In this document: piece after piece, positions 11,913-34,893 of the stretch
How the letters are laid out: every line of letters starts with the position of its first letter
Numbering within the stretch: the first letter of the stretch is position 1
Assembly (NCBI GenBank): GCA_016840165.1
Contig: JAEOSU010000047.1
Location: 1-48,249, forward strand
Origin: Promethearchaeota archaeon
Lineage (GTDB): Archaea > Asgardarchaeota > Lokiarchaeia > Sigyniarchaeales > SOKP01
Direction: 5' to 3'
Length of the DNA stretch: 48,249 nucleotides
Notes under the pieces: generated by a model
The model's database searches: none
Seen by the model: only the letters and a program-made list of their open reading frames with translations
Told to the model about the DNA's origin: nothing
Made by a program: the position numbers and the translations under genes

Positions 11913-12785
11913 TTGAAATATAATATCGATTTTTCTATGGAAAAAGTATATATAGGGCAAAGAAGCATTTTAATTTTAATATCATCGATTATTGTAATTC
12001 AACTTATTGGATTAGCTCTCAGTATTATTAATGACCATTTTGGTTCTGATTTTTCAATATATTACGAAAATACTAAAGCCTTTTGGTTAAATCAAGAAAC
12101 CTATCAAATGGGAGACTTTTTTTACTTGAACTATTTTTACTTTTTGAATGCCTGGGTGTTATTGCTTCCAAAAAGTATAGGATTAATATTACACCTTATT
12201 CTCACAAATTTAATGTTTTATTATATCATTAAAAACATAAATCTAGTCTATGAACTATATTGGTTTTATGCAAACTTATTTTTAATTCTAATTTATTCGA
12301 TAACATTTAACACCGATATATGGATTGCACTCTCATTCTTATTATTTTTGAAATATCGAAGGAGATGGTACTCTCCTTTTTTCTTATTATTAAGTTTTTT
12401 CAAAATAACACCAATTTTAGCATTTGGATTAATATTTTTAATAATTTTATATTATGAGAGAGAAATTTTAATAAAATTACTACCGGGCCTTATGGGCGTT
12501 TTTATTATAATTGGAATATCTTTTTTCACAAGCACAGGATTAATCAGTAGTGTTACCAATTTTGGGAATAGCCTATTTACCGATATGGGAATAATTGTAT
12601 TTTTTCAGCCGCCCCATTTTTGTTGGTGGTCTATTCCTCTATTGTTTTATACTAAATTTAAAGCAATTGATATTAAAATGGCAAAGAAGGTCTGGATTAT
12701 TTATGCATGTCTTACTCTCTTCTATGGATTTTATATCTTGATTCAGAGTTCTTCCGTTTTATCGGACTACTTATTTAATTCCTAG
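11913..12785 (+). CDS. Second, shorter GT87-like membrane protein
   Basis: DFSIYY, FFYLNYF, NTD, FKITP; many TMs. Confidence 0.6.
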   Translation: MKYNIDFSMEKVYIGQRSILILISSIIVIQLIGLALSIINDHFGSDFSIYYENTKAFWLNQETYQMGDFFYLNYFYFLNAWVLLLPKSIGLILHLILTNLMFYYIIKNINLVYELYWFYANLFLILIYSITFNTDIWIALSFLLFLKYRRRWYSPFFLLLSFFKITPILAFGLIFLIILYYEREILIKLLPGLMGVFIIIGISFFTSTGLISSVTNFGNSLFTDMGIIVFFQPPHFCWWSIPLLFYTKFKAIDIKMAKKVWIIYACLTLFYGFYILIQSSSVLSDYLFNS

Positions 12786-12868
12786 ATAGAAATCAGAAAA
12801 AAAGATCTTTTAATTAATTTAGAATACTCAATTAAAATAATAAAATATAAATTATTTTCTCAATTGCG

Positions 12869-30162: not shown

Positions 30163-30724
30163 AAATAAAGTAGGATCTAAACACCATAATTCAAATTTAG
30201 ATTTTAAAGGAATGGCGTTTTTTTTCAAAATCCGTGATATATTCAAACCTCCCATAAAAAAGATCAATCGTTCAATGGTTAAGAAGGGATATTCTGTTTT
30301 GGATTATGGATGTGGGTCAGGAAGCTATACTTTTGCTACCGCTAAGGTCGTTGGTGAAAAAGGCAGAATTTATGCTGCAGATATTCATCCACTTGCTATT
30401 GAGAAAGTAAAAAAGAGAGCACAAAAGAATAATCTTGAAAACATCGAGACCATTTTAACGGATTGTGACACTAAATTAGGCGATAAATCTGTTGATGTGG
30501 TAATTTGTTTTGACGTGATGCATGCGATAGCGGATAAAAATAAGCTAGTGAAAGAATTTCATAGGGTTTTAAAATCTGATGGATATTTATCCTTCGATGA
30601 TCACCATTATACTGAAGAAGAAATCATGAAAATTTTTTCCGATGGCAATCTGTTTAAATTAGAAGAGCAAAAGGATAAGATCTTTAATTTTAAAAAAGTG
30701 AATGGCGTTAATCTAAGTGAATAA
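30152..30724 (+). CDS. Class I SAM-dependent methyltransferase
   Basis: VLDYGCGSG, YAADI, EFHRVLKSDG; ATG 30152 follows GGAGG. Confidence 0.88.
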   Translation: MKNKNKVGSKHHNSNLDFKGMAFFFKIRDIFKPPIKKINRSMVKKGYSVLDYGCGSGSYTFATAKVVGEKGRIYAADIHPLAIEKVKKRAQKNNLENIETILTDCDTKLGDKSVDVVICFDVMHAIADKNKLVKEFHRVLKSDGYLSFDDHHYTEEEIMKIFSDGNLFKLEEQKDKIFNFKKVNGVNLSE

Positions 30725-31274
30725 CGAATTCACACGCCTTTCCCCCGCTAACTATCGTCTGGAGCATATCAACTTTCACATCTTTATCAAGTAATACTTT
30801 AAATAAGTCTTTTAACCATCCTAAGGAGCAATAACAGTAAGTTTCTGGGATAGGTTCTTTTGCTACTTGAACACCGATATGACAATAACACTTATTAAAT
30901 TTTGCTACAATCGTATTTCCTTTTAATTTGAAATATTCTTCGTCACCAATAATCTGGTTAAGATTTTTGATAATTTCTTTAATCCCGTTTGATTTATCTT
31001 TAACTTGAAGTGCTCTTTCAAGAAAATGGTTTTGAAAGCAATAATATCCCATCGTTTCCATAACTCCACTTTTTTTTTCTTTTTTATCTACTACGTTATC
31101 AAAATTTTCCATGAGTTCTTTCATGCATACTGCCATTTCTGGATCGCTTGTAATGGATTTACATTTTGCACAATCCTTCACTATTTTCTCATATGTCCCT
31201 TCTCCAAGTTGTTCAGAAACTATCGTTTTAAACCCTTCAAACCAATCGTGATATTTTTCTTCCATAATATTCAT
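30708..31274 (-). CDS. Cys-rich DUF6144/V4R-like protein
   Basis: KCYCH, YCYCSLGW, TIVSGGKACEF. Confidence 0.65.
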   Translation of the reverse strand: MNIMEEKYHDWFEGFKTIVSEQLGEGTYEKIVKDCAKCKSITSDPEMAVCMKELMENFDNVVDKKEKKSGVMETMGYYCFQNHFLERALQVKDKSNGIKEIIKNLNQIIGDEEYFKLKGNTIVAKFNKCYCHIGVQVAKEPIPETYCYCSLGWLKDLFKVLLDKDVKVDMLQTIVSGGKACEFVIHLD

Positions 31275-31330
31275 CTAATTCTTTGTAAACTAAAAAATAT
31301 TAATATTCTAAAATCAATTATATATGAATT

Positions 31331-31735
31331 ATGCTTGATATTATATTAATTCAGCATGATGTTTCAGGAATCAATCTGGTGGAATATCGTCAACCCCATA
31401 CAAAAATTGGGACGGAGCATTCTAATATTTTTAGCGGGTTTCTTTCGGCAATCCAAAATATCACCACTGAATTGAATATTGGAACACTCATTCTCATCTC
31501 AACTGAAGGATCTCGGGGTCATAATTGCATAATCGTGCCTCGTTCGCCGATCAATGTAATTATTTTGGTTGATAGTACTGATCCAATCGACTTATGGCGT
31601 GAACAAGGTCATATCATTGCAGATAAATTCTTTGAGCATTATGGAACCGAGTTTAACCCAAATGATATAAATAAGTTTAGAGATTTTTCCGATACCTTGA
31701 AAGGATTGTGTTCTACTCATGAATATTGTGAATAA
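31331..31735 (+). CDS. Longin/roadblock-like domain protein
   Basis: SGINLV...IFSGFLSAIQNITTELNIG pattern typical of Asgard longin/roadblock-like proteins. Confidence 0.55.
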   Translation: MLDIILIQHDVSGINLVEYRQPHTKIGTEHSNIFSGFLSAIQNITTELNIGTLILISTEGSRGHNCIIVPRSPINVIILVDSTDPIDLWREQGHIIADKFFEHYGTEFNPNDINKFRDFSDTLKGLCSTHEYCE

Positions 31736-31749
31736 TGAATCCTAAACTA

Positions 31750-31757
31750 TTTATAGA
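31750..31757 (+). promoter_or_regulatory. TATA box of the leader peptide-leuS transcript
   Basis: TTTATAGA starts 29 nt before ATG 31779, consistent with a leaderless start. Confidence 0.6.
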
Positions 31758-31778
31758 AAAAAAGGTAGTTACATATTA

Positions 31779-31865
31779 ATGATCTTTAATAACACCGCTA
31801 TAGCAAAGTGTACAAGGGAAAATGAACCTTTAGTCAATTTGCTCGTTGTGTTATTATTATTATAA
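31779..31865 (+). CDS. Putative leucine-sensing leader peptide MIFNNTAIAKCTRENEPLVNLLVVLLLL (28 aa)
   Basis: 7 of the last 11 codons are Leu, ending TTA TTA TTA TTA TAA; directly upstream of leuS. Confidence 0.72.
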   Translation: MIFNNTAIAKCTRENEPLVNLLVVLLLL

Positions 31866-31990
31866 GCGAAACGAATCCACATAACTAATTTCTTTTCTCT
31901 TTTCTGTGGTTCGGTTCGCGTGAAGCATAGATTATAGTTAAAGAAATTTTGGTTAGGGATTTGTTCTCGTAAAATAATAGACCTAATATG
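31866..31990 (+). promoter_or_regulatory. Putative attenuator RNA switch with U-rich tract (31889-31903)
   Basis: Helix 31866-31881/31905-31919 competes with helix 31866-31895/31940-31970. Confidence 0.62.
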
Positions 31991-31998
31991 GGATAATA

Positions 31999-34893
31999 AT
32001 GTATAAAGCACGAGAGATTGAAAAAAAATGGCAAGAGAGATGGGAATCATCAAAAATATTTGATGCTAATCCAGATCCTAATAAAAAAAAGAAATTTATT
32101 ACAATTCCTTATCCTTATGCTTCAGGTACAATGCACATAGGACATGGGAGGAGTTATGTAAATGGTGATATTTTTGCGAGATATTACCGCGCGAAAGGCT
32201 ATAATGTATTATTTCCAATGGCCTTTCATATTACAGGTACCCCTGTATTAGCTATATCTTCTTCCTTAGAGAGAGGGGATAAAGAAACATTTGAGAAGAT
32301 GTGTGACTATGTAGGAATCCATACTTCAAATAAAGAGGAAATCAACAAAATAGTTAAAAGCTTTGTAGATCCTTGGAACATTGTCAATTACTTTTCAGAA
32401 AAAATGAAAGTTGATTTAAAGTCCATAGGCATGAGTTTAGATTGGAGACGAGAATTCACTACTGGAGATAAGATATACAATCAATTTATAGAATGGCAAT
32501 ATTATAAACTAAAAGGTAAAGGTTACTTAGAGAAAGGAGAATACCCAATTCTTTATTGTCCTCGTTGCATGAATGCAGTAGGAGAGGATGATATTGCCCG
32601 TGGAGATGAACTTGATTTAAATATAAATGAGTATACCTGTATTAAATTTCCTTTTGAAGATGGATATTTAGTACCAGCAACTCTACGCCCAGAAACCATC
32701 TATGGAGTGACCAATATCTGGATAAATCCCAATGGACAATATGTCAAGGCTGAAATCAATGGAGAGATCTGGTATATATCAAAAGAAGCTATTCATCTTT
32801 TCGAAAACCAAAATAAGCAAGCAAAAGTCATCAAAACTTTCAAAGGAATAAATTTAGTTGGAAAAAATGCTAAACATATAATTTCTGATCGAAAACTTCC
32901 AATCCTTCCTGGTGATTTTGTAGACACATCCGCTGCTACTGGGGTGGTATATTCTGTTCCTGCTCATGCTCCATTCGATTATATGGCTCTTATTGATTTG
33001 CAAAAGGATACTACAGCAATTCAAAAATACAATTTAGATGAAGAGTTAATATTAAAGATTCGACCAATCAAGATAATAGAACTTGAGGCTATTAATGACA
33101 TTCCAGCTAAGTACTATTGCGAAAAATTCCATGTAAATAGTCAGATGGATAAAGAAAAATTAGATAATGCGACTGCTGAGAATTATCGCGCAGAATTTTA
33201 TAATGGAATCTTGAATGAACGGTGTGATAAATATATGGGTAAGCCAGTCTCTGAAGCTGTTGATCTTGTAATTAAAGAGCTGATAGAGGAAAATAAAGCA
33301 GATAAGATATACATTCCAATCACAAAAGGTCTCGAATGTAGATGTGGAGTGCAAATTATAGTATCAATTTTAAAAGATCAATGGTTTCTAAATTTTAATG
33401 CAGGAAATTGGAAGGAGACTGCTTTCAAATGTTTAAATAAGATGACTATTCATCCGAAAAAGTATCGAACGACCTTTGAAAATGTCTTTAATTGGTTGGA
33501 AAAACGACCATGTGCTCGAAAACGAGGTTTAGGTACTCAATTGCCTTTTGATAAGGAGTGGATTATTGAATCTCTTAGCGATTCTACTATTTACATGAGC
33601 TTTTATACTATTGTCCACCATATCAAGCGGAATCACATAGAGTCTGAGCAACTCACACCTAAATTTTTTGATTTCGTATATTTGAAGAAAGGAAATATAG
33701 ATGAGATATCAAAGGATACAGAAATAGACCATAGTCTATTGAAAAGGATGCAAAAAGAGTTTAATTATTGGTATCCCGTAGATCATCGACATACCGCTAT
33801 AATGCATATTTCTAATCATTTAAGTTTCTATATTTTTCATCATGTTGCGATCTTCCCGGAATTTATGTGGCCAAAAATAATAACTTTGATTGAGCCGGTG
33901 ATAATTGAAGGGCAGAAAATGGGCAAATCAAAAGGAAATGTAATTTCCCTATCAGACATTAAGGAGAAGTATTCTGCTGACTTATTTCGACTATATATTT
34001 CCCATAGCGCAGATTTAGGAATTAATATAGATTGGAAGGAAAAAGAAGTCCAAGTTGTTCGTAATCATATCAACCGATTCTATAAATTTATGAAGGAGAG
34101 AATTGAAAATATAGAAGATTTCGATCTTGGATACGATGATATAAAATCTGACTATACAAAAGTAGTAATTTCAAAAATTACCAGTAATTTTTTGAAAATC
34201 GATGATGCCTTAGAATTTTTTAATTTGAGGAGATATCTTCAGCTTGCTTTCTATGAGACATTCAATTTGATGCAGGAGGCGAATAAAAACCTTGGTAGTA
34301 ATACTGACTTTCAAATCATTTTTAAGTTAGTTTATGAAGATTGGCTTAAGATCCTTTCATTGGCGATCCCCCATCTTTGTGAAGGACTTTGGGAGCTTTC
34401 AAATCATCAAGATTTTATTTCTAAGTCCATCTGGGGTGAATTTAATACTAATTATATTGATAACAACTTGGAAATGGAATTTGAGTACATTTCACAGCTT
34501 CTCGATGACATATCTAATGTAAAAAAAGTCATTAGAGCTGCACATATTAACGAAATCTATATCTATACTGCACCTAAATGGAAAAAAGAAGTTTTAGAAA
34601 TCGTTAAATCTAAAAGAGGAGATTTTAATTCGATAATTTCTGAATTGAAAACACACTCCACTTTAATTAAAAATAAAAAGTCCATACCTTTTATTAAAGA
34701 TCTAATAAAGAAACGTTCATGGGACCTAATAACAAGTGTTGGAAATGAATCTGAAACATTAAAGCGTTATAAATCATATATCGAAGGAAAAGTAAATTCT
34801 AAGATAATTATCAATAGTGACTTCGACCCAGAAAGTAAATTAGATAAAGCACTTCCTAGCAAACCGGCATTATATATAAATATTGAGAACTAA
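31999..34893 (+). CDS. leuS: Leucyl-tRNA synthetase, archaeal/eukaryotic type
   Basis: PYPYASGTMHIGH, TLRPET, SVPAHAP.D, IESLSDSTIY, KMGKSKGN. Confidence 0.96.
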   Translation: MYKAREIEKKWQERWESSKIFDANPDPNKKKKFITIPYPYASGTMHIGHGRSYVNGDIFARYYRAKGYNVLFPMAFHITGTPVLAISSSLERGDKETFEKMCDYVGIHTSNKEEINKIVKSFVDPWNIVNYFSEKMKVDLKSIGMSLDWRREFTTGDKIYNQFIEWQYYKLKGKGYLEKGEYPILYCPRCMNAVGEDDIARGDELDLNINEYTCIKFPFEDGYLVPATLRPETIYGVTNIWINPNGQYVKAEINGEIWYISKEAIHLFENQNKQAKVIKTFKGINLVGKNAKHIISDRKLPILPGDFVDTSAATGVVYSVPAHAPFDYMALIDLQKDTTAIQKYNLDEELILKIRPIKIIELEAINDIPAKYYCEKFHVNSQMDKEKLDNATAENYRAEFYNGILNERCDKYMGKPVSEAVDLVIKELIEENKADKIYIPITKGLECRCGVQIIVSILKDQWFLNFNAGNWKETAFKCLNKMTIHPKKYRTTFENVFNWLEKRPCARKRGLGTQLPFDKEWIIESLSDSTIYMSFYTIVHHIKRNHIESEQLTPKFFDFVYLKKGNIDEISKDTEIDHSLLKRMQKEFNYWYPVDHRHTAIMHISNHLSFYIFHHVAIFPEFMWPKIITLIEPVIIEGQKMGKSKGNVISLSDIKEKYSADLFRLYISHSADLGINIDWKEKEVQVVRNHINRFYKFMKERIENIEDFDLGYDDIKSDYTKVVISKITSNFLKIDDALEFFNLRRYLQLAFYETFNLMQEANKNLGSNTDFQIIFKLVYEDWLKILSLAIPHLCEGLWELSNHQDFISKSIWGEFNTNYIDNNLEMEFEYISQLLDDISNVKKVIRAAHINEIYIYTAPKWKKEVLEIVKSKRGDFNSIISELKTHSTLIKNKKSIPFIKDLIKKRSWDLITSVGNESETLKRYKSYIEGKVNSKIIINSDFDPESKLDKALPSKPALYINIEN

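Follow-up and report, generated by a model that had tools for sequence, protein, structure and literature searches.

Why does a gene for leucyl-tRNA synthetase (LeuRS) in an Asgard archaeon follow a small open reading frame (ORF) that ends in a run of leucine codons? The locus lies in the window, a 48,249-nucleotide stretch (positions 1 to 48,249, forward strand) of contig JAEOSU010000047.1 from the Promethearchaeota archaeon assembly GCA_016840165.1. An earlier note on this DNA had proposed that the upstream ORF (uORF) is a leader peptide on which ribosomes stall when Leu-tRNA is short, de-repressing leuS. We followed up this proposal by comparing related genomes, folding the leader RNA and searching for similar leaders. 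We conclude that the uORF and the RNA behind it form a real, conserved element, whose best interpretation is an archaeal equivalent of leader-peptide attenuation in bacteria, built from unrelated RNA. The probability that the ORF encodes a leader peptide through which ribosome-mediated attenuation matches leuS expression to the supply of charged tRNA-Leu is, in our view, just under 0.6.

A leucine-rich upstream ORF is conserved in front of leuS

The ORF described in the earlier note is present exactly as claimed (Table 1). It contains no leucine in codons 1-17 and seven in the last 11, and it closes with four TTA codons directly followed by TAA. A gap of 133 nucleotides (nt; 31866-31998) separates it from the leuS start codon, and the TATA box likewise begins where the note had placed it. 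Because this TATA box lies 29 nt before the uORF ATG, the transcript is probably leaderless or nearly so, with a transcription start predicted from this spacing. leuS itself is preceded by a Shine-Dalgarno-like motif, which suggests that it would be read from an mRNA with a 5' leader, and orthologues carry GGTGAT-like motifs at the equivalent place. The leuS product is an archaeal-type LeuRS. It matched TIGR00395 over its full length (936 bits against a cut-off of 648.5) and also matched the Pfam tRNA-synt_1, Leu editing and anticodon-binding domains.

The leader pattern in one genome alone is weak evidence. The window genome (3.6 Mb, 31.6% GC, 99.7% complete) contains 24 runs of at least four TTA triplets on its two strands, where base composition predicts about 18. 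About 20 of its 2610 long ORFs are preceded by a small ORF that has at least six leucines in eight codons. The pattern is recognized as non-random because it is conserved in relatives.

We fetched leuS loci from genomes of the same genus and compared each one that had enough upstream sequence. Every such locus shares the arrangement of TATA box, ORF, leucine-rich tail and a stop codon that touches a conserved segment. Altogether, 39 distinct leaders precede archaeal-type leuS, with ORFs of 26-32 codons. An A-rich stretch and a TATA box (TTTAWA) lie 25-34 nt before the ATG. The encoded peptides begin with M-I-S-N-N-T-A and are variable in the middle. Among 38 distinct leaders, the reading frame of the ORF was open in all 38, frame +1 in none and frame +2 in three. 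The last 12 codons of these ORFs hold a mean of 7.1 leucines (range 5-9) and 0.1 isoleucines; leucine accounts for 10.4% of the rest of the leader ORF and for 10.0% of the genome's long ORFs. All six leucine codons are used (TTA 227, TTG 34, CTT 26, CTA 26, CTC 16, CTG 6). The stop codon is TGA in 20 orthologues, TAA in 15 and TAG in three, and in all leaders it abuts region 1 of the downstream RNA. A conserved leucine-rich uORF with synonymous variation among its leucine codons, as the earlier note had anticipated, was thus found. Repeat variation out of frame, of the kind seen in microsatellites, had been named there as contrary evidence; it did not occur, and the length changes that we observed were in frame.

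Alternative helices behind the stop codon covary

The RNA between the uORF and leuS was divided into five regions (Table 1). Region 1 has two possible partners: with region 3 it makes hairpin S (helix 1:3), and with region 5 it makes helix 1:5, which together with helix 2:4 gives a long hairpin of about 95 nt. We assessed covariation in an alignment of 77 distinct sequences that includes paralogues and was fitted to helix 1:3, which it therefore favours, helix 2:4 lying outside the model. In this alignment, 12 of 13 pairs in hairpin S and 12 of 16 pairs in helix 2:4 change on both sides. Of the 29 pairs examined, 24 change on both sides; 84% of cells pair, compared with 39-58% when the partners are slid, and none of 500 shuffles reached the observed values. 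A set of 19 sequences gave 87% of cells paired, against 41-50% with partners slid, and 12 pairs that change on both sides. The duplex energy of hairpin S was -16 to -20 kcal/mol in all 19 leaders tested. Throughout the alignments, region 2 is pyrimidine-rich and its partner, region 4, is purine-rich, and the two are never flipped. Helices 1:3 and 2:4, both of which covary, cross each other, and from their stem lengths we take them to be mutually exclusive alternatives. A pseudoknot holding the two together was judged sterically unlikely, a judgement reasoned from stem and linker lengths rather than computed.

The long hairpin was the minimum free energy (MFE) structure in all 17 sequences tested, and helix 1:5 formed in 51 of 69 distinct full leaders. 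The window leader folded better than shuffled versions of itself (z = -4.66). We then masked 9 nt of region 1, which mimics a ribosome on the stop codon. Under this condition a hairpin formed in all 70 leaders, with energies of -18 to -35 kcal/mol, from CC(G/A)CC and region 2 paired with region 4 and GGUGG. The window's version spans 31875-31960 (-28.9 kcal/mol). Uridine makes up 43% of the 12 nt that follow this hairpin, compared with 21.6% of the rest of the spacer.

A further helix, P0, folds the start of the uORF onto its leucine run. It is seen in the MFE fold of the window leader and forms in 65 of 69 distinct leaders, and four of its 10 pairs change on both sides. In paralogous leaders of the valine type, P0 covaries with the tail, and GUAGUAGUA pairs with UACUGCUAC. 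The conservation of the M-I-S-N-N-T-A N-terminus is explained by P0, since this helix pairs codons 4-7 with the leucine run.

A search of 30500-33000 with Rfam cmscan, at E values up to 10, returned four unrelated matches, all below threshold. There was no match in this interval to Leu_leader, to other bacterial amino-acid leader families or to the T-box.

Table 1. Positions of the leader ORF, the segments of its RNA and the two LeuRS genes. Positions refer to the window unless a contig is given.
Feature	Position	Strand	Remarks
TATA box of leader promoter, TTTATAGA	31750..31757	+	29 nt before uORF ATG
Leader-peptide ORF	31779..31865	+	28 codons, MIFNNTAIAKCTRENEPLVNLLVVLLLL and stop; ATG 31779, TAA 31865
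Helix P0	31787-31798 with 31845-31856	+	codons 4-7 pair with start of Leu run
Leu-rich tail of leader ORF	31830-31862	+	codons 18-28; (TTA)4 at 31851-31862
Region 1, GCGAAACGAATCCAC	31866..31880	+	flush with stop codon; shared 5' arm of both alternative folds
Region 2, U/C-rich tract (..TTTCTTTTCTCTTTTCT)	31881..31905	+	loop of hairpin S or 5' strand of helix 2:4
Region 3, GTGGTTCGGTTCGCG	31906..31920	+	3' arm of hairpin S (1:3), presumed antiterminator; RNAalifold
Region 4, A/G-rich	31931..31955	+	partner of region 2 (helix 2:4); weakly TATA-like
Region 5, GGGATTTGTTCTCGT	31956..31972	+	second partner of region 1; closes long hairpin
U-enriched tract, 3' part of region 5	31961-31972	+	6 U of 12; presumed termination site
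Shine-Dalgarno-like purine-rich motif (..TGGGAT..)	31988..31994	+	5-11 nt before leuS ATG
leuS, archaeal-type leucyl-tRNA synthetase	31999..34893	+	964 aa; HIGH and KMSKS-like motifs, editing domain; TIGR00395
Bacterial-type LeuRS gene	other contig, G000 C63:91897-94689 (L217:4-2796:-)	-	TIGR00396

Related leaders carry tails that follow the downstream gene

We built a covariance model, R1, from the leucine run through region 4 and used it to survey relatives. The element was found in 93 of 131 genomes of the window's Lokiarchaeia-type family, spread over nine genera, and in none of 19 genomes from three other families of the order. A class-level draw gave 87 of 126 genomes, against none of 24 from other families. 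The window genome has a single copy; some relatives have two or three. Paralogous leaders retain the whole architecture and differ in the composition of the tail and in the gene downstream. Its distance to the gene that follows, always in the same orientation, is 108-265 nt, and at least five unrelated genes have such a module upstream.

The make-up of the tail varies with the gene downstream. Leucine dominates in all 39 distinct leaders before archaeal-type leuS, with a mean of 7.1/0.1/1.4 Leu/Ile/Val in the last 12 codons, and in all five before bacterial-type leuS (7.6/0.4/2.4). Isoleucine dominates in nine of the 11 leaders that precede fusions of an FrhB/FdhB-like protein with a TrmB-like helix-turn-helix (HTH) domain (2.6/4.7/2.0). 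Both leaders before genes of the acyl-CoA dehydrogenase family are dominated by valine (2.0/1.0/6.5), and the 15 leaders before tiny ORFs of 41-68 aa mix valine and leucine (4.7/0.1/4.6). One generalization is that the family uses homologous attenuators with Leu-, Ile- and Val-tuned tails, the leucine version controlling whichever leuS is the regulated LeuRS gene; we consider this evenly poised between true and false.

The genes behind the other tails were also inspected. A tail mixing isoleucine, valine and leucine (for example MVSNNTATRIMVRKLLSIIIIIVVVIII followed by the stop; loci L147, L149, L150, L153-L159, L162, L163) precedes a monocistronic gene of about 480 aa, whose predicted product is an FrhB/FdhB-like 4Fe-4S flavoprotein with a TrmB-like HTH domain and may be a redox-sensing regulator. 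We considered an operon partner as the explanation of the isoleucine-type leader and rejected it, as these genes are monocistronic. Leaders with Val/Leu tails precede conserved, acidic mini-ORFs of 41-56 aa that end in ..F.PAE.YI.E..IAW (L161, L164-L168, L171, L173, L177, L180; for example L166:489-626, plus strand). A second type of tiny ORF, 59-68 aa long, contains ..PGEIE.., and loci L160, L182 and L186 hold a tiny ORF other than the acidic mini-ORF. Neither of the two types matched Pfam or NCBIfam. The valine-rich leader before an acyl-CoA dehydrogenase family gene occurs in two genomes (L174, L176).

Most of the family encodes two LeuRS enzymes of different ancestry

The window genome encodes a second LeuRS, of bacterial type, on another contig (Table 1). 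This protein of 931 aa scored 971 bits against TIGR00396 and is 29% identical to the window LeuRS; its C-terminal third also matches archaeal LeuRS models. Neither inspection of the region upstream of this bacterial-type leuS nor the R1 search revealed a leader there. Of 131 family genomes, 118 carry a LeuRS of the bacterial type, whose gene usually has no leader, and most of the family shares the dual-LeuRS set-up. Five genomes from two other genera have a leucine-rich leader 160-195 nt upstream of the bacterial-type leuS, and no archaeal-type LeuRS reached the family cut-off in those five. Because leucine tails stand before both bacterial- and archaeal-type leuS, the tails track LeuRS function rather than gene ancestry, although the genomes counted are relatives and do not represent independent events.

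The dimerisation domain of LeuA (PF08502), the one query used here, was not found in the window genome, which is 99.7% complete, and the organism may make no leucine itself. An inducible back-up synthetase fits the arrangement of a leader-bearing leuS alongside a leaderless bacterial-type copy.

A model for control of leuS by Leu-tRNA supply

We propose the following attenuation model. The promoter at 31750 would start the RNA at or just before the uORF ATG. With ample Leu-tRNA, a translating ribosome would reach the stop codon and cover most of region 1, so that hairpin S could not form; given the general size of its footprint, a ribosome on the stop codon would cover about the first 10-12 nt of region 1. 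The long hairpin would form instead, and ahead of leuS the transcript would end, or be cut, within the U-rich tract. If Leu-tRNA is scarce, the ribosome would stall in the leucine run, leaving region 1 free to pair with region 3 once the latter has been made. Formation of hairpin S would block the long hairpin, and RNA polymerase would read into leuS. Hairpin S would thus act as the antiterminator, and the long hairpin with its U-rich tail as a terminator or as a loading site for FttA. In this scheme a shortage of Leu-tRNA would switch leuS on and raise the second, archaeal-type LeuRS beside the leaderless bacterial-type enzyme. We chose this direction of control because it matches every known control of a synthetase. 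It also suits the second LeuRS as a conditional enzyme in an organism in which no LeuA dimerisation domain was found.

The predicted sensor is well supported by comparison among leaders. The attenuation reading of the earlier note is partly supported: its sequence-level predictions for the locus itself held, with a conserved leucine-rich uORF and synonymous codon changes, and the uORF is linked to covarying alternative helices. The reading was not seen to extend to other synthetase genes, which the note had proposed to examine. No convincing cognate-codon uORF was found before ten other aminoacyl-tRNA synthetase (aaRS) genes of the window genome, comprising class I paralogues, the tRNA-synt_2b group and one Asp/Asn/Lys-type gene.

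The lack of cognate-codon leaders at these ten genes is one of several points that weigh against attenuation. Others concern the RNA. The predicted ground state of the free full-length RNA is the long hairpin and not hairpin S, so the attenuation model needs kinetic control. A scan for bacterial-type terminators did not find a canonical hairpin with an oligo-U tract, and the tract that follows the long hairpin is U-enriched at most, with six U of 12 in the window and fewer than six in about half of the leaders. One orthologue (L015) has no region 5. We therefore rejected the idea that region 5 is an essential, conserved oligo-U terminator, since its U-run varies and L015 is without it. To our knowledge, hairpin-dependent termination has not been established for archaea. 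In most leaders region 4 looks like a TATA element and might serve as an internal promoter. Many leaders have leucine codons early in the ORF, and stalling there would precede the run. The isoleucine-type and most valine-type paralogues stand before genes with no evident link to isoleucine or valine, namely the FrhB-HTH fusions and the tiny ORFs. Archaeal transcription-translation coupling, moreover, has little direct evidence (PMC13681488). We also considered translational control, in which the leader would hide the ribosome-binding site of leuS. This was unsupported, as the predicted accessibility of the start with region 1 masked showed no consistent change (mean 0.60 vs 0.55, 60 leaders).

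Alternative explanations for the leader

The alternative that survives best keeps the ribosome and reverses the sign. Region 2, the U-rich tract some 25-35 nt beyond the stop codon, would be where RNA polymerase pauses or terminates, and only a ribosome trailing it closely to the end of the uORF would rescue it, either by pushing the polymerase or by excluding FttA. Plentiful Leu-tRNA would then turn leuS on, and ribosome stalling would turn it off. The distance from the last tail codons to the U-tract roughly equals the length of a collided ribosome-polymerase pair, and being on with an abundant amino acid would suit the valine-type leader before acyl-CoA dehydrogenase. Region 2 is also the best-conserved U-rich tract of the leader: it contains T5 in 12 of 17 leaders of the genus and is never flipped with its partner. 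Oligo-U is the termination signal of archaea, and FttA prefers U-rich nascent RNA (PMC13681488). This explanation, however, leaves regions 3-5 without a role and does not account for the covariation of helices 1:3, 2:4 and 1:5. The T-run of region 2 is just T3-T4 in several leaders, including that of the window. Lowering a synthetase at a shortage of charged tRNA would also oppose every known aaRS control (T-box, pheST, thrS; in part PMC1262725). We regard this alternative as unlikely. E. coli pyrBI, in which a U-rich tract likewise lies one ribosome length after the leader ORF, is relevant to this alternative only; unlike the leader described here, pyrBI senses UTP through polymerase pausing and not an amino acid through codons.

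The uORF could also be an independent small-protein gene with its own promoter and terminator, encoding a micropeptide with a hydrophobic tail, in which case leuS would be transcribed from a promoter in the TATA-like region 4. In favour, the conserved ORF comes with a TATA box of its own, region 4, which reads AAAATTTAATTG in many leaders, looks like promoters of the family, and the tails of some paralogues, with 14-17 hydrophobic residues, approach the length of a membrane helix. The leuS tails, however, have just about nine hydrophobic residues, with acidic ones before them. The middle of the peptide is barely conserved, and its conserved N-terminus is explained by the RNA pairing in P0. The module keeps its orientation and spacing before at least five unrelated genes, which fits such a gene poorly, and a mere neighbour of leuS would leave it unexplained why leucine-only tails precede two unrelated leuS genes. 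Region 4, finally, shows covariation with region 2, and in certain paralogues, L162 among them, it does not resemble a TATA box. A micropeptide gene therefore seems quite improbable to us.

A third explanation takes the structured leader to be read by a factor other than the ribosome. LeuRS might bind its own mRNA, as ThrRS does in E. coli, or a tRNA might pair with the leader in the manner of a T-box, the ORF being incidental to helix P0. Such a reader would account for the extensive covarying structure, for the position of the tail codons within P0 in the free RNA and for the identity of the regulated product, which is the synthetase. It would not account for a frame that is open in 38 of 38 leaders when the other two are open in 0-3, for an ATG at the predicted transcription start, or for a stop codon that varies in identity and is fixed in position. 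The use of all six leucine codons indicates that the amino acid, not a pairing sequence, is conserved, and no T-box or other Rfam family matched. We give this explanation a very slender chance.

Chance would mean that an AT-rich trinucleotide repeat fell by accident within an open frame in front of leuS. This reading could appeal to a (TTA)4 frequency near that predicted by base composition and to the many small leucine-rich ORFs of the window genome, but it is already refuted by the comparative data (an element conserved in frame in more than 80 genomes, with in-frame length changes, synonymous leucine codons and covarying structure), and we reject it, together with a microsatellite origin, as having practically no chance of being correct.

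Other small ORFs and neighbouring features

We scanned the window genome for small ORFs with at least six identical residues in eight upstream of long ORFs. Ten candidates from the scan, among them one His-run and several Leu-runs, were rejected as attenuators because they precede unrelated genes (restriction-modification methylase, RsmB, alcohol dehydrogenase, lysine aminomutase and others), and the scan thus identified no other attenuator in this genome. An Eco57I/TaqI-like restriction-modification methylase gene has a small frame, MEHHHHHHNHEE (G000 C70:21288-21326, plus strand), 76 nt ahead of it; this frame probably represents the C-terminal end of the gene before it rather than a His leader. 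A tRNA-like stretch (..GGGTGCAAATCCCATCACTGGCTC) is located about 330 nt upstream of a gene for a class-I synthetase-like protein of 480 aa (G000 contig C47, minus strand, near 12617-12850).

In the window, the leader is directly preceded by a gene (31331-31735, plus strand) that is syntenic in several relatives and encodes a protein of 134 aa without a Pfam match. The C-terminal end of this protein, ..CSTHEYCE, is seen right before the leader promoter in loci L006, L014, L016 and L024. At locus L002 (G018), AATGTATAAAGAAG lies about 30 nt before leuS begins; it matches the opening bases of that gene (ATGTATAAAG) and may be a small duplication.

Comparison with known attenuators

The leader resembles the classical bacterial attenuators E. 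coli leuL-leuABCD, pheL, hisL and ivbL/ilvL in its short ORF, which repeats codons for the relevant amino acid. This codon run extends almost to the stop codon, a feature shared with pheL and hisL, and as in the classical systems, mutually exclusive RNA helices start at the end of the ORF. The Leu-, Ile- and Val-weighted paralogous leaders may be compared with the leu, ilvGMEDA and ilvBN leaders of bacteria. The leader differs from these systems in its host, an archaeon whose RNA polymerase is eukaryote-like, in an mRNA that is probably leaderless and in the absence of sequence or Rfam similarity. A hairpin of 13-15 base pairs around a U-rich loop, set against a hairpin of about 95 nt, takes the place of the compact GC hairpin and oligo-U tract of a classical terminator. 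Helix P0, which folds the start of the ORF onto the codon run, is absent from the classical scheme, and the regulated genes are not biosynthetic operons.

Among published systems the nearest are attenuators of bacterial synthetase genes, one of them E. coli pheM-pheST, a synthetase gene behind a leader peptide that is rich in its own amino acid and followed by alternative hairpins. Attenuators with leader peptides and alternative hairpins have been predicted, but only predicted, for leuS and trpS in Streptomyces, one of them thus likewise before leuS (PMC1262725). Both the pheM-pheST and the Streptomyces systems are bacterial, their terminator hairpins carry poly-U tracts, and they have no sequence relation to the window leader. 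Here, unlike in those systems, two LeuRS genes that differ in ancestry are present, and one of them is the gene that would be regulated. The T-box that precedes leuS or second-copy synthetase genes in Firmicutes would share the logic that a fall in charged tRNA turns a synthetase on, often a back-up copy. The T-box, though, reads uncharged tRNA through a specifier codon and the T-box sequence without an ORF, whereas the leader described here has a conserved ORF and no T-box match.

Full-text literature searches found no published description of leader-peptide attenuation in archaea.

Implications for Asgard archaea

Leader-peptide attenuation is a textbook bacterial mechanism, and it requires that a ribosome follow RNA polymerase closely. 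If the attenuation reading is true, the leuS leader would be the first ribosome-sensing attenuation system in archaea, and it would provide direct genetic evidence of transcription-translation coupling in the closest prokaryotic relatives of eukaryotes. A conserved, covarying and codon-specific Asgard leader would make archaeal coupling testable. It would also show how archaeal termination signals (U-tracts, FttA) can serve attenuation in place of the hairpin terminators of bacteria. For annotation, the covariance model is ready to be applied to more than 100 unannotated small ORFs and leaders. For the organism itself, the arrangement suggests that a single cell makes conditional use of two LeuRS enzymes that differ in ancestry.

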